Source: an uncultured Acidobacteriaceae bacterium
Lineage (GTDB): Bacteria; Acidobacteriota; Terriglobia; Terriglobales; Acidobacteriaceae
Direction of reading: 5' to 3'
Length of the DNA: 64,000 nucleotides
Assembly: GCA_963766975.1 (NCBI GenBank)
Contig: CAVYCF010000012.1
Location: 32,859 to 96,858, forward strand
Numbering within the stretch: the first letter of the stretch is position 1; every line of letters starts with the position of its first letter. The notes below the pieces were generated by a model. The model ran no database searches. It saw only the letters and a program-made list of their open reading frames with translations, and was not told the DNA's origin. The translations under genes and the position numbers were made by a program. Of the stretch, positions 49,580 through 51,715 are shown piece after piece.

Positions 49580-51715
49580 ATGGCAAAACGCGCAAAGATC
49601 TTCGAGAACCTGCTGGTACAGGCCGCCAAGGGCGGATGGGTCGTCTACAACGGCATCAACTCGATGTTCGCGGACAACCCGGGCTTCACGCCGAAGTGGA
49701 GCGACAAGCCGCTGTTGAAGAGCTACCAGAAGGAGAAGCCGCCGCTGGGCTGGCCGCGCACGACTGACTCGCTGTGTCCGAAGTGTATTCCGGAGATTCG
49801 CCAGCAGATCGTGGACGGCAAGCTGCCGCACGAGATCCTGCTGAACGAAAAGGTGGGCGAGATCAAGGCGCAGATCATCGAGCGCGACGGCCAGATCCTG
49901 ATGGTGAAGGACTGCCCGATCCACGGCCACTTTGAGGACGTGATGTCGATCGATCCGCCGATGTTCAGGCACCTGGAAGAGGTCTTCCCGGGCCGCGACA
50001 TCCGCGCGCACAACGATTCGAAGCTGCACAACCACGGCACTTCGACCGTGACTCACGGGCGGGGCTCGGTGCTGACCATCGACCTGACCAACCGCTGCAA
50101 CATGATGTGCGATCCGTGCTTTATGGACGCCAATCAGGTTGGCTTTGTTCACGAGCTGACGTGGGACGAGATCAAGACCATGCTGGACAACGCGATCACT
50201 ATCAAGCCGCGCCGGCAGATGAGCGTGCAGTTCTCGGGCGGCGAGCCGACGCTGTCGCCGTACTTCCTGGACGCGGTCGCGTACTCGCGCAAGGTGGGCT
50301 ACAACTCGGTGCAGGCGGCGACGAATGGCATCGAGTTTGCGAAGTCGAAGGAGTTTGCCAAGGCCGCGGCCGAGGCCGGCCTGCGCTACGCGTATCTGCA
50401 GTTCGACGGCATCGGCAACGCGGCGAACTCGCACCGCAAGGTGGGCAATGCGTTCGACGTGAAGCTGCAGGCGATCCACAACCTGCATGAGGCCGGCGTG
50501 GACATCGTCCCCGTGACGACCATCATCAACGGCATCAACAACGAGCAGGTGGGCAATATCATCCAGTTCGCGCTGGACAACCCGAAGAAGATCAACTTCC
50601 TCAGCTTCCAGCCGGTGAGCTTCACCGGTCGCGATGAGGCCGTCTCGGACGAGCGCCGCGCCGCCCAGCGCTACACTCTCTCCCACATGGCGCATGATGT
50701 GAAGGAGCAGACCGGCCTGGGCGAGCCCACACGGGACTGGTTCCCCATCAGCTTTATGTCCACCTTCTCGGACTGGGCGGATCTCGTCCACGGACCAGAC
50801 CGCGACTGGGGCCAGCTCTCCTGCGGCTGCCACCCGAACTGCGGCATCGGCATGGCGCTGATGATCGACAAGGAGACCAAAGAGGCCGTCCCGGTCACTG
50901 CGTTCCTGAACGCCGACCGCCTGGCCAAGGATGTGGCGCGCATCAACGACGCGGCGCGCGGCAAGATATCCTCCATCGTTGGCGTGTCGCTGGCGCTGCT
51001 GCGCAACTACAAGCCCAGCGAGGCGCCCACGCACTTCAAGATCGTGGACCTGCTGCAGAAGTTCGACAAGTGCTTCGGCGCGACCGGCAAGGACTACGGC
51101 AAGGTGACCGGCGACCGCACGATGGCCGACATCGAAAAGCGCCGCAAGGACCGCTGGAACTTTCTTTTCATCGCGGGCATGTGGTTCCAGGACCTGTTCA
51201 ACTACGACTTCCGCCGCACGGAGCAGTGCATTATCCCGTACGCGACACAGGAGGGCGAGATCAGCTTCTGCGCGTACAACACGGGCGTGGGCTGGAGGAA
51301 CATCATCGAGAAGATGCACATGACCTCCACGCTGACCAAGTGGTATGAGGAGCATGGCCGGCATGAGATCTTCGCGGGCGGCAAGAAGGTGGGCCTCGAA
51401 ATGCAGGACAAGTACGACCTGGTCCTGAACGATGCCCACGTGAACGCCGCGGCCAACGACACCTTCGACAAGAGCGGCATCGCGAAAAATGCGCGCGAGG
51501 AGAAGATCCGGGCGCGCGACGCGAAGATCAAGCAGGACGCCGAGAACGCGAAGATGGCGAAGCTCTACCGCAAGGAGATCCTGAAGGAGCCCGATATGCC
51601 GGGCGGCTTTGTTGCCATCGGCGAGATCGGTTCTGCTTCGGGCGGCATCGGCGCAGCGCCGGCCATCAAGCCCGCTGCTCCGAAGCAGGTAGAAGAGACG
51701 GTCGCGGGAGACTAA
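49580..51715 (+). CDS. Radical SAM protein of the MJ0619 / tetraether synthase (Tes, GDGT-MAS) family
   Basis: SLCPKC...KDCPIHG, DLTNRCNMMCDPC, QFSGGEPT, ATNGI, YLQFDG, FQPVSFTGR, CHPNCG and GMWFQD.FNYDF.R..QCIIPYAT...FCAYN. Confidence 0.82.
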   Translation: MAKRAKIFENLLVQAAKGGWVVYNGINSMFADNPGFTPKWSDKPLLKSYQKEKPPLGWPRTTDSLCPKCIPEIRQQIVDGKLPHEILLNEKVGEIKAQIIERDGQILMVKDCPIHGHFEDVMSIDPPMFRHLEEVFPGRDIRAHNDSKLHNHGTSTVTHGRGSVLTIDLTNRCNMMCDPCFMDANQVGFVHELTWDEIKTMLDNAITIKPRRQMSVQFSGGEPTLSPYFLDAVAYSRKVGYNSVQAATNGIEFAKSKEFAKAAAEAGLRYAYLQFDGIGNAANSHRKVGNAFDVKLQAIHNLHEAGVDIVPVTTIINGINNEQVGNIIQFALDNPKKINFLSFQPVSFTGRDEAVSDERRAAQRYTLSHMAHDVKEQTGLGEPTRDWFPISFMSTFSDWADLVHGPDRDWGQLSCGCHPNCGIGMALMIDKETKEAVPVTAFLNADRLAKDVARINDAARGKISSIVGVSLALLRNYKPSEAPTHFKIVDLLQKFDKCFGATGKDYGKVTGDRTMADIEKRRKDRWNFLFIAGMWFQDLFNYDFRRTEQCIIPYATQEGEISFCAYNTGVGWRNIIEKMHMTSTLTKWYEEHGRHEIFAGGKKVGLEMQDKYDLVLNDAHVNAAANDTFDKSGIAKNAREEKIRARDAKIKQDAENAKMAKLYRKEILKEPDMPGGFVAIGEIGSASGGIGAAPAIKPAAPKQVEETVAGD

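Follow-up and report, generated by a model that had tools for sequence, protein, structure and literature searches.

A Tes-like radical SAM gene without [Fe4S4]N ligands in an Acidobacteriaceae genome encodes a candidate iso-diabolic acid/brGDGT synthase

The window analysed here is a stretch of 64,000 nucleotides from an Acidobacteriaceae bacterium. The program-made list of reading frames contains an ORF on its forward strand (49580..51715) that starts with ATG and encodes 711 amino acids, exactly the coordinates and the length given in a preliminary description of this DNA. Table 1 compiles the features of the locus. The ATG start is supported by the AGGAG sequence ten nucleotides upstream and by homologs aligning from residue 1. 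The GC3 value of the coding sequence is 0.90. All motifs listed in the preliminary description were recovered from the translation: C66-x2-C69 ... C112-x2-H115, the radical SAM motif CX3CX2C (C173-NMM-C177-DP-C180), F343-QPVSFTG-R351, C417-HPN-C421, and M534-WFQD...C550-IIPY554...FC564-AYN. Chance is excluded as an explanation for this motif set by the Pfam matches of the protein to Radical_SAM (PF04055, 8e-19) and Zn_ribbon_HMPTM (PF23545, 2e-12) and by its match to PDB entry 7TOL (E = 2e-60).

Table 1. Features of the Tes-like locus, in positions of the window
Feature	Position	Strand	Remarks
Only recurrent neighbour, ~335-aa signal-peptide protein	47430..48437	+	31/81 loci, median gap ~390 bp
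Three direct repeats CCGTTCA, CCGTTCA, CTGTTCA	49295..49341	+	20-nt spacing; putative activator-binding array
-10-like hexamer TAAGCT	49376..49381	+	34 nt past third repeat
Ribosome-binding site AGGAG	49565..49569	+	10 nt before ATG; conserved in upstream-region alignment
CDS, Tes/GDGT-MAS-like radical SAM protein	49580..51715	+	Including stop codon; intact; full-length homolog alignment
N-terminal extension, aa 1-58	49580..49753	+	No MJ0619 counterpart
Rubredoxin-like mononuclear-iron domain, aa 59-123	49754..49948	+	Ligands C66, C69, C112, H115; PF23545 2e-12
Cys-free linker in place of [Fe4S4]N domain, aa 124-163	49949..50068	+	
Radical SAM core, aa 164-380	50069..50719	+	PF04055 8e-19
C-terminal auxiliary-cluster and lipid-pocket domain, aa 381-590	50720..51349	+	From alignment
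C-terminal tail, aa 591-711	51350..51712	+	Weakly conserved, mostly disordered
Intrinsic-terminator-like hairpin	51757..51788	+	14-bp stem, 8 G-C pairs, then T-rich tail

A lipid operon at the locus was considered and rejected, as Pfam scans of ~45 ORFs of the window and clustering of flanking ORFs in 80 related loci revealed housekeeping neighbours only, such as MutY, TldD/PmbA, an M48 peptidase, and RlpA. No lipid-biosynthesis gene was consistently adjacent in the window or in these 80 loci, nor did three distant members of the clade described below have a consistent lipid-gene partner next to them. In relatives, the recurrent neighbour encoding the signal-peptide protein immediately precedes the Tes-like gene in the same orientation; here, an inserted SUKH gene intervenes. 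Its product had no match in Pfam, NCBIfam or PDB, and the single-sequence structure model (pLDDT 34) was unusable.

The repeat array upstream of the gene occurs only once in the window, with a shuffle expectation of 0.06. In 31 of the 80 loci, it stands 100-400 nt ahead of the ortholog, compared with 7 matches in the remaining 2.5 Mb, and its geometry is conserved among the ortholog loci. A TAnnnT hexamer follows the third repeat at a distance of 34-35 nt in 21 of 24 loci. Transcription presumably starts at ~49388-49398, and a peat metatranscriptome contig with an exact match begins at 49398. A generic sigma-70 scan did not call a promoter with the -10-like hexamer of Table 1. Rfam searches of positions 46000-53000 (E <= 1) gave no riboswitch or leader RNA, apart from one chance match to a miRNA, and the whole 64-kb window had no match at the gathering score. 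The strong terminator-like hairpin after the stop codon indicates that the Tes-like gene is monocistronic. The gene is transcribed. Metatranscriptome contigs from peat and leaf span the coding sequence, the two exact-match contigs deriving from one peat sample; exact contigs were also found in one peat metagenome. Beyond these few contigs, the sequencing runs searched yielded near relatives only, the best run containing 27% of the sequence words. The host is a soil or peat acidobacterium, and the taxonomy of the homologs (Acidobacteriaceae) agrees with the acidobacterial origin surmised in the preliminary description.

Sequence and predicted fold agree with the initial proposal and place the 711-aa protein among radical SAM enzymes of the Tes/GDGT-MAS-like type. 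GDGT-MAS (PDB 7TOL) was the sole full-length match in sequence searches, and BLASTP against MJ0619 yielded 31% identity over 495 aa (2e-65). The AF2 model (pLDDT 78, pTM 0.82) gave the same result in Foldseek, with 7TOL/7TOM matched at TMt 0.85-0.87 (E ~1e-30) and all other matches covering the radical SAM core alone. The comparison of a predicted structure with MJ0619, which the preliminary description had suggested, thus came out in favour of its assignment.

For MJ0619, Lloyd et al. (PMC9433317) have described SAM/5'-dA contacts, a gating loop and four metallocofactors. The catalytic and SAM-binding residues named in that study are all kept in the 711-aa protein and throughout clades A-C. 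C173/C177/C180 align with the RS cysteines C98/C102/C105 of MJ0619, and the partial TIM barrel was found. The core further contains GGEP (220-223) and the 5'-dA loop FQPVSFTGR (343-351). MJ0619 residues F106, G145, Y195, D199, R210, and V236 correspond to F181, G221, Y272, D276, R286, and V312, and T238, Q268, S271, T273, and R275 to T314, Q344, S347, T349, and R351. The [Fe4S4]C ligands C338, C455, C470, and M439 have their equivalents in C421, C550, C564, and the labile M534, which are predicted to bind the cluster, and the strictly conserved substrate-proximal Y459 is represented by Y554. These ligands, Y554 and two additional cysteines of the same domain, C415 and C417, are (near-)invariant in an alignment of 59 clade sequences. 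In the rubredoxin-like domain, C112/H115 align with C33/H36 of MJ0619, and C66/C69 are conserved in the family alignment; the MJ0619 sequence used there did not cover C9/C12, and its ligand set was taken from PMC9433317. The CX2C...CX2H motif is kept in every aligned group.

The terminal extensions noted in the preliminary description are real, comprising ~58 aa at the N-terminus and ~120 aa at the C-terminus relative to MJ0619 and the canonical homologs of ~545 aa. The N-terminal extension is predicted to form a long helix spanning aa 3-30, after which comes a conserved segment rich in Trp and Pro (AF2 pLDDT 83-95 for aa 1-60). Its mean identity is 0.37, with W20, W40, P44, P54, G57, P59, and R60 (near-)invariant in the 59-sequence alignment. 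The C-terminal tail, with a mean identity of 0.20-0.36, contains a predicted charged helix (~aa 634-666) and has pLDDT values <50 at aa 626-639 and 673-711.

The MJ0619 positions C73/C77/C80/H83, which belong to [Fe4S4]N, are occupied by K148/H152/S155/T158, and there is no cysteine from H115 to C173. The CX3CX2C+His ligands of this cluster were found in none of 319 clade members and in all 116 canonical homologs, while H152 is invariant in the cluster-less clade. The preliminary description overlooked the absence of this site. It had counted a loss of auxiliary-cluster ligands against its own proposal, and such a loss has occurred in part: [Fe4S4]N is gone clade-wide, but the catalytic [Fe4S4]C is retained. 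In MJ0619, [Fe4S4]N is located at the surface and has no known role (Lloyd et al., PMC9433317). We found no literature on [Fe4S4]N mutants, the reported variants being those of Y459 and M439 only. Since [Fe4S4]N is replaced by a Cys-free, His-containing loop together with a new N-terminal extension, the enzyme would operate with three metallocofactors instead of the four of archaeal Tes. Loss of the surface cluster as an aerobic adaptation proved unsupported: aerobic Bryobacterales keep canonical copies, and Thermoanaerobaculia of anaerobic type carry the cluster-less type.

Against the NCBIfam Tes equivalog NF045702 (IPR034474), the protein scored 322.3 bits (cutoff 450). Clade relatives reached 299-414 bits, and canonical representatives 516-558 bits. 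The TrsS model NF045646 gave 209 bits (cutoff 490) and covered aa 94-379 only. In a distance-based bootstrap tree, the protein fell on the cluster-less side of a 100/100 split from canonical and archaeal Tes. The HMM search and the phylogeny envisaged in the preliminary description supported it in part. The protein matches the Tes family and is a Tes relative, but its 322 bits lie below the curated cutoff of 450, and its clade, which lacks a characterised member, stands outside the canonical Tes side. On sequence grounds, we conclude that the Acidobacteriaceae protein does not belong to the canonical Tes enzymes. A sister group of paralogs, to which Terriglobus roseus AFL89353.1 belongs, additionally lacks the [Fe4S4]C cysteines and the tyrosine, which demonstrates that the family does decay or neofunctionalise.

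Members of the cluster-less clade share 75-90% identity across Acidobacteriaceae genera and Bryobacterales, whereas their syntenic neighbours share only ~46%. Such identity between orders indicates strong purifying selection on the Tes-like gene. The clade was detected in at least 596 species genomes, is widespread in Terriglobia, and has relatives in Thermoanaerobaculia MAGs; the catalytic and SAM-binding residues are invariant across the Acidobacteriota classes. Bryobacterales and Solibacter apparently carry both the cluster-less type and canonical Tes. According to the lipid literature, iso-diabolic acid accounts for 20-40% in SD1 and SD3 cultures and has been reported solely for acidobacterial SD1, 3, 4, and 6. 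Acidobacteriaceae and Bryobacterales are among its makers.

We infer the substrate, product, electron path, and regulation of the Acidobacteriaceae enzyme, and propose its mechanism by analogy to MJ0619. The protein is cytoplasmic and probably membrane-peripheral. It would link two lipid tails through their terminal carbons into a membrane-spanning chain. SAM would be cleaved at the RS cluster held by C173/C177/C180, and the resulting 5'-deoxyadenosyl radical would take a hydrogen from the terminal methyl group of one tail. The carbon radical would then be captured through a C-S bond to the C-terminal [4Fe-4S] cluster, whose predicted ligands are C421/C550/C564 and the labile M534, until a second SAM activates the second tail, whose attack on the adduct would create the C(sp3)-C(sp3) bond. 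In the Acidobacteriaceae host, two iso-C15:0 glycerolipid chains would thus yield the brGDGT backbone, iso-diabolic acid (13,16-dimethyl-octacosanedioyl). We hold with moderate confidence that tail-to-tail C-C coupling of iso-C15 chains is the most likely role, and by sequence and structure model the protein is the best candidate for an acidobacterial iso-diabolic acid/brGDGT synthase.

Several observations support the iso-diabolic acid reading. All catalytic and SAM-binding residues named by Lloyd et al. are kept, and GDGT-MAS is the sole full-length match. The gene combines its 75-90% conservation with a presence in at least 596 species genomes, and iso-diabolic acid is abundant in SD1 and SD3 cultures (20-40%). 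It is transcribed, monocistronic, and equipped with its own conserved promoter array. There is no mss homolog in Acidobacteria, and an iso-branched tail end is chemically equal to a phytanyl end (Zeng et al.). The reading is weakened by the score of 322 against 450 bits and the disappearance of one of the four defining metallocofactors, by the Thermoanaerobaculia relatives, given that the acid is reported for SD1, 3, 4, and 6 alone, and by the missing lipid-biosynthesis gene in consistent adjacency. Furthermore, some Tes homologs, MA_1114 and the halobacterial ones, make no tetraethers (Zeng et al.), which likewise detracts from it. In the literature to 2025-2026, we found no experimental assay of any bacterial Tes homolog, the cluster-less clade included.

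Tes-type lipid chemistry might also serve another job, such as coupling of ether-linked chains only (brGDGT under oxygen limitation), intramolecular macrocyclisation or another tail cross-link, with iso-diabolic acid being made by a different enzyme. We regard this as less likely. MJ0619 and other Tes proteins form multiple products (macrocyclic archaeol, GTGT, GDGT), and MA_1114 yields only traces of macrocycle. The two types in Bryobacterales and Solibacter may divide labour, and the dedicated activator-type promoter suggests conditional expression; however, a bulk membrane function accords better with the very strong conservation and the wide occurrence in SD1 and SD3. An alternative acidobacterial pathway has been argued for by Sahonero-Canavesi et al., but their count of 3 of 14 genomes uses stringent thresholds, which a clade of ~31% identity would narrowly miss, and the literature knows no further candidate for C-C coupling in these genomes.

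The two remaining alternatives would take the protein out of lipid coupling altogether. That it acts on a non-lipid substrate, either as the '7,8-dihydro-6-hydroxymethylpterin dimethyltransferase' of legacy annotation or in an unrelated radical reaction on the same scaffold, appears improbable to us. JGI labels several orthologs in this way, the Pfam zinc-ribbon family retains the HMPTM name, and a second family, TrsS, is hit with 209 bits. That score, however, is well under the cutoff of 490, and Acidobacteria are not known to synthesise methanopterin. Moreover, Lloyd et al. (PMC9433317) failed to reproduce the pterin methylase activity and found the active site to be a long hydrophobic lipid pocket; the lipid-proximal tyrosine and the [Fe4S4]C site for lipid C-S capture are retained here. 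More improbable still is a catalytically impaired relic of canonical Tes that persists after cluster loss because it serves structure or regulation. The missing [Fe4S4]N ligands would agree with it, as would the paralog group of AFL89353.1 with its missing [Fe4S4]C cysteines and tyrosine. Against decay stand the invariant catalytic and SAM-binding residues, the strong purifying selection between orders, and the transcription of the gene, while the cluster that disappeared lies at the surface of MJ0619. Gms is active without a rubredoxin domain, which indicates that accessory metallodomains are dispensable in this enzyme class.

Returning to the coupling of iso-C15 chains, we tentatively extend it to the whole clade. 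The cluster-less proteins could be the sought acidobacterial iso-diabolic-acid synthase, a three-metallocofactor Tes of aerobic soil bacteria that would couple their ester-linked iso-C15 chains, would differ from the canonical Solibacter/Koribacter Tes and would be governed by a three-repeat activator switch; we consider this broader proposal possible, yet short of probable. The brGDGTs are among the most used continental proxies for palaeotemperature and pH. Sahonero-Canavesi et al. reported Tes homologs in 3 of 14 acidobacterial producer genomes, and this number, together with the absence of Mss from the phylum, has prompted suggestions of a further, unknown route. The sequences analysed here suggest that the apparent lack of an acidobacterial synthase may be a threshold artefact. 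If the cluster-less clade is a true synthase, it would supply the genetic marker that the palaeothermometer lipids have lacked and give access to their regulation. The marker would be clade-specific and could be used to source brGDGT and iso-diabolic acid in metagenomes, and the promoter array would offer a route to the regulator that ties oxygen, temperature or pH to spanning-lipid production. [Fe4S4]N would then be unnecessary for the Tes reaction, which bears on the roles of accessory cofactors. Otherwise, Acidobacteria possess a strongly conserved radical SAM enzyme that still needs explaining.

Among known systems, GDGT-MAS/Tes (MJ0619) shares with the Acidobacteriaceae protein the four-lobed fold, the rubredoxin-like Cys3His site, CX3CX2C, the FQPVSFTGR loop, the named SAM contacts, the [Fe4S4]C Cys3+Met site, and the substrate-proximal tyrosine. 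The two differ in that they are only 31% identical, in the spacer of the rubredoxin motif (42 residues here, 20 in MJ0619), and in the two terminal extensions; in addition, the present host, a bacterium, has iso-branched lipids with ester linkages instead of archaeol. Canonical bacterial Tes proteins of ~547 aa (Ca. Solibacter, Ca. Koribacter, Bryobacteraceae, Aminicenantes) come from the same phylum, in some cases apparently from one and the same order (Bryobacterales). They share the catalytic residues and are likewise candidates for brGDGT synthesis, but they retain the [Fe4S4]N CX3CX2C+His site (116/116), lack the terminal extensions, pass the Tes cutoff, and group with archaeal Tes across the 100/100 split. 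Some of them are named 'tetraether lipid synthase Tes' by NCBI.

For Mss of Thermotoga maritima and Thermoanaerobacter ethanolicus, the same end result has been proposed, namely radical SAM-dependent joining of acyl tails into diabolic or iso-diabolic acids, and the auxiliary-cluster mechanism postulated for it is the same. According to literature descriptions, however, it belongs to a different radical SAM family, so far found in anaerobes only. Tes homologs are absent from the organisms with Mss, as are mss homologs from Acidobacteria (Sahonero-Canavesi et al.). The GMGT synthase Gms likewise belongs to the radical SAM enzymes and uses auxiliary [4Fe-4S] clusters to make C(sp3)-C(sp3) bonds in lipids. 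It contains three [4Fe-4S] clusters and no rubredoxin domain, whereas the Acidobacteriaceae protein keeps the rubredoxin site and has one cluster fewer; the cofactor sets of Gms and Tes illustrate that accessory metallodomains vary among active enzymes of the class. Zeng et al. (2022) flagged a homolog from another member of the Acidobacteriaceae, Edaphobacter aggregans, with 32% identity (4e-61) to archaeal Tes, compared with 31% (2e-65) here. Judged by the shared family and this similar level of identity, it is probably an ortholog of the Tes-like gene. The lipid-coupling hypothesis is therefore not new. Zeng et al. (2022), however, described neither the absent cluster nor the two clades nor the promoter in connection with E. 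aggregans. What appears to be new here is the reduced set of cofactors, the split between the clades, and the array in the promoter.

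The Tes-like gene, on the + strand with an ATG start and 711 aa, has exactly the position given in the preliminary description, and every motif named there was found in the translation. Pfam searches of the window protein assigned aa 169-331 to the Radical_SAM domain (8e-19) and aa 59-123 to the MJ0619-type zinc ribbon PF23545 (2e-12), and BLASTP yielded 31% identity to MJ0619 across 495 residues. Among solved structures, the archaeal tetraether synthase GDGT-MAS/Tes from M. jannaschii (7TOL/7TOM) was the sole full-length match (E 2e-60; aa 94-588 aligned with residues 35-511), the matches to MoaA, SkfB, and PqqE being restricted to the core. 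An AlphaFold2 model built from a 59-sequence alignment (mean pLDDT 78, pTM 0.82) retrieved 7TOL/7TOM in Foldseek (TM 0.85-0.87, target-normalised; E ~1e-30), and all remaining matches covered the radical-SAM barrel only. The top NCBIfam model was the Tes equivalog NF045702, although its 322 bits lie below the curated cutoff of 450; the runner-up, TrsS, scored 209 bits (cutoff 490).

According to Lloyd et al. (PMC9433317), GDGT-MAS holds four metallocofactors: a rubredoxin-like Fe (ligands C9, C12, C33, and H36), the surface cluster [Fe4S4]N (C73, C77, C80, and a conserved His), the radical SAM (RS) cluster, and [Fe4S4]C, which is bound by three Cys and the labile Met439 and captures the first lipid radical with its sulfide. 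The same study names the 5'-dA/SAM contacts and the strictly conserved Tyr459, located 4.2 A away from the substrate's terminal carbon. When these sites were mapped onto the window protein, [Fe4S4]N was the sole non-conserved element. The protein shares the rubredoxin site (C112/H115, with C66/C69), the RS cluster ligands (C173/C177/C180), the 5'-dA/SAM contacts (F181, G221, Y272, D276, R286, V312, T314, Q344, S347, T349, and R351), the [Fe4S4]C ligand equivalents (C421, M534, C550, and C564), and Y554 as the counterpart of Tyr459. Where GDGT-MAS has the [Fe4S4]N ligands, however, it has K148, H152, S155, and T158, and no cysteine occurs between H115 and C173. H152 is invariant across the clades without [Fe4S4]N ligands, hereafter called cluster-less; it occupies the position of MJ0619 C77, within a conserved LHxHG(T/S)S motif.

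In a motif census of the stretch that runs from the rubredoxin CxxH to the RS motif, CX3CX2C was detected in none of 120 close homologs, 80 proteins from related genome loci, and 119 more distant relatives, but in all 116 classifiable canonical-type homologs. Thus, the absence of [Fe4S4]N is a property of the clade. Loss of auxiliary-cluster ligands had been named beforehand as speaking against a Tes-like enzyme; the [Fe4S4]N ligands are indeed absent, whereas those of [Fe4S4]C are kept. The initial assignment as Tes/GDGT-MAS-like therefore holds for the fold and the catalytic residues but does not extend to canonical Tes, given the absent [Fe4S4]N ligands and the NF045702 score below cutoff. 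We conclude that the window protein represents a separate variant within the Tes family, with a reduced set of cofactors.

Neighbour-joining analysis (43 sequences, 506 columns, 100 bootstraps) separated every cluster-less protein from every canonical one, whether bacterial or archaeal (MJ0619 included), in 100/100 replicates. As the tree is distance-based and unrooted, loss and primitive absence of [Fe4S4]N are not separable in it. Among the cluster-less proteins, group A (Terriglobia) was united in 100/100 replicates with group B, whose names derive from MAGs of Thermoanaerobaculia and Ca. Polarisedimenticolia and whose members are 52-57% identical to the window protein. Sister to both is an acidobacterial paralog group (F), including P0138 (Terriglobus roseus AFL89353.1), P0151, and P0183, none of them encoded in the window. 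It keeps the rubredoxin site as well as the RS cluster but additionally lacks both the substrate-proximal Tyr and the cysteines of [Fe4S4]C, and presumably carries out different chemistry. Canonical representatives scored above the Tes cutoff (516-558 bits) and members of clades A-C below it (299-414 bits).

A genome scan found relatives of the Tes-like gene in at least 596 species-representative genomes. The 80 best loci carry Terriglobia or unresolved Acidobacteriota labels, except for one Bordetella-labelled MAG (L075); the taxa represented comprise Granulicella, Tunturiibacter, Edaphobacter, Terriglobus, Acidipila, Terracidiphilus, Ca. Angelobacter, and Bryobacterales. Their proteins are 75-90% identical to the window protein, compared with only ~46% for syntenic neighbours in the same loci, which indicates an unusually strong constraint on the Tes-like gene. 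Canonical-type proteins of ~547 aa, some of them named 'tetraether lipid synthase Tes' by NCBI, carry the names of Bryobacteraceae, Ca. Solibacter, Terriglobia, and Aminicenantes. Thus, Bryobacterales apparently have both types, in agreement with the two Tes homologs reported for S. usitatus (PMC10087280).

The Tes-like gene is intact, aligns end to end with its homologs, and has the highest third-position GC in its neighbourhood (0.90). Since the flanking genes run on the opposite strand, it is monocistronic. No lipid operon accompanies it in the window, where its neighbours are the SUKH/SMI1 gene and, on the minus strand downstream, the genes for DUF480, a GT4 glycosyltransferase, and a 407-aa protein, with housekeeping genes further away. 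The only recurrent partners across the 80 related loci are the upstream signal-peptide protein gene and an RlpA-like gene. Neither the family nor the structure libraries gave a match for the signal-peptide protein; it carries a conserved HxDPRYxR motif and occurs as a tandem pair of paralogs in some loci (43 copies overall). The SUKH/SMI1-KNR4 family, to which the adjacent minus-strand gene belongs, includes immunity proteins. That gene separates the conserved upstream partner from the Tes-like gene here only (0/80 related loci), and its local GC is below the surroundings. DUF480 lies near the Tes-like gene in nine related loci; the GT4 and 407-aa genes do not. Three distant clade members have unrelated gene neighbours. 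In isolated, non-conserved cases among distant members, the gene adjoins an FAD-dependent oxidoreductase (L081, 6757-7917) or has beside it an MFS transporter plus an AMP-binding acyl-activating enzyme, a TetR gene lying upstream (L082, 10006-13172).

Features of the window and motifs of the Tes-like protein
Feature	Position	Strand	Remarks
Low-GC island	2314-4110	+	49% GC vs ~63% elsewhere
PheT	30679-32843	-	broken by two frameshifts
Signal-peptide protein, ~335 aa	47430-48437	+	directly upstream, same strand, in 31/81 loci
SUKH/SMI1 gene	48547-49182	-	neighbour of Tes-like gene
Putative promoter array	49295-49381	+	also in L003, L004, L006-L009, L013, L015, L020, L022, L034, L037-L039, L041, L042, L044-L046, L048, L051, L063, L069
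TAnnnT hexamer	49376-49381		TAAGCT
Ribosome-binding-type AGGAG			ten nt 5' of Tes-like ATG
Tes-like gene	49580-51715	+	ATG start, 711 aa
Rubredoxin-like motif			C66xxC69...C112xxH115
Loop replacing [Fe4S4]N site	49949-50068		aa 124-163
RS motif			C173NMMC177DPC180
5'-dA loop motif			F343QPVSFTGR351
CHPNC motif			C417HPNC421
C-terminal block			M534WFQD...C550IIPY554...FC564AYN
Terminator	51757-51788		14-bp stem, 3' of Tes-like gene
DUF480 (YceH-like), GT4 glycosyltransferase, 407-aa protein without family match	51813-55046	-	downstream convergent operon

Three direct CC(G/A)TTC(A/G) repeats (49295, 49315, and 49335) emerged from an alignment of upstream regions. The paired repeat motif is unique in the 64-kb window (shuffle mean 0.06). 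In 31 of 80 loci it lies 100-400 nt upstream of the ortholog, with seven scattered matches in the other 2.5 Mb. Repeat spacing is 20 or 21 nt in all 24 loci with three repeats, 21 of which have a TAnnnT hexamer, most frequently TACTCT, 34-35 nt 3' of the third repeat. The array, which is specific to the Tes-like gene's promoter, ranges from Acidobacteriaceae to Bryobacterales. We read it as a conserved putative activator-dependent promoter, with repeat centres at about -50, -70, and -90, and probably as the binding site of an activator. Metatranscriptome contigs from peat and leaf (at least 85% alike) stack on the coding sequence and not on its flanks; this pile-up partly reflects gene conservation, because a DNA metagenome gives the same pattern. 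Two peat RNA contigs are identical to the window (49398-49648 and 51390-51541), and therefore the gene is transcribed, with a ~180-nt leader, in this strain or in one nearly identical to it.

Unlike the Tes-like gene, the PheT, fumarase, and ABC ATPase genes of the window are frameshifted. As PheT is essential, these breaks are probably assembly indel errors rather than pseudogenes. The class I fumarase and the GntR-fused ABC ATPase, seemingly split, are listed with 474-1952 (+) and 43472-44836 (-). The low-GC island encodes an AAA_15/AAA_21-type ATPase over three overlapping ORFs, then a PIN-domain protein, and resembles a toxin-antitoxin or defence-like module gained by horizontal transfer. 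Over nearly all of 1-64000, GC skew is positive, with values of 0.2-0.3 at 10-24 kb and at 52-60 kb, and cumulative skew climbs across nearly the whole window. Neither tRNA genes nor Rfam matches at gathering score were found in 1-64000.

Zeng et al. (2022, PMC8941075) described 456 bacterial Tes homologs and proposed a role in brGDGT synthesis; the best (40-42%) are in Koribacter and Solibacter, and E. aggregans has one (32% identity, E = 4e-61). The window protein is likely the ortholog of this E. aggregans candidate, given that it matches archaeal Tes to a similar degree (31%, 2e-65) and is 86-90% identical to proteins of Edaphobacter, Granulicella, and Tunturiibacter. Using stringent thresholds, Sahonero-Canavesi et al. 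detected Tes homologs in only 3 of 14 acidobacteria that produce iso-diabolic acid, and they put forward an alternative pathway. The cluster-less clade lies right at such thresholds and so may itself be this 'alternative'. Papers from 2025-2026 still call bacterial Tes homologs untested. The literature searched contained neither a knockout or expression study of them nor an earlier description of the missing [Fe4S4]N, the canonical/cluster-less split, group F, or the promoter array. Reading the gene as a lipid enzyme is reasonable and previously proposed, but needs qualifying. The window protein is the leading candidate for an important missing enzyme and adds new structural and regulatory details.

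By analogy, we lean modestly towards Tes-type coupling of iso-C15 glycerolipids to iso-diabolic acid as its function. The Tes mechanism on these lipids is the most economical reading because the catalytic core is conserved residue by residue, GDGT-MAS binds bacterial phosphatidic acid, which is ester-linked, and directs one of its tails toward 5'-dAH (Lloyd et al., PMC9433317), and the iso-branched fatty-acyl terminus is the chemical equivalent of the phytanyl terminus (Zeng et al., 2022, PMC8941075). The host lineage fits as well, since cultures of SD1 and SD3 have an iso-diabolic acid content of 20-40% and mss is absent from Acidobacteria. As a counterpoint, relatives are present in Thermoanaerobaculia MAGs, whereas iso-diabolic acid is reported for SD1, 3, 4, and 6 only, and there are Tes homologs that make no tetraethers (Zeng et al., 2022, PMC8941075).

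Substrate, product, and electron path of Tes-type coupling we infer as follows. Two SAM-derived radicals would be spent per C-C bond; the first lipid radical would be held on the C-terminal cluster in a C-S adduct, and the second would attack this adduct to give iso-diabolic acid. Without [Fe4S4]N, the RS cluster would have to receive its electrons along a different path, perhaps straight from the rubredoxin-like site. One lost accessory cofactor is no strong argument against activity, because the literature assigns no role to the surface [Fe4S4]N of MJ0619 (PMC9433317) and because Gms, another lipid C-C coupling enzyme, is active without a rubredoxin domain. Gms thus dispenses with the rubredoxin domain, whereas the window protein keeps the rubredoxin site and lacks [Fe4S4]N.
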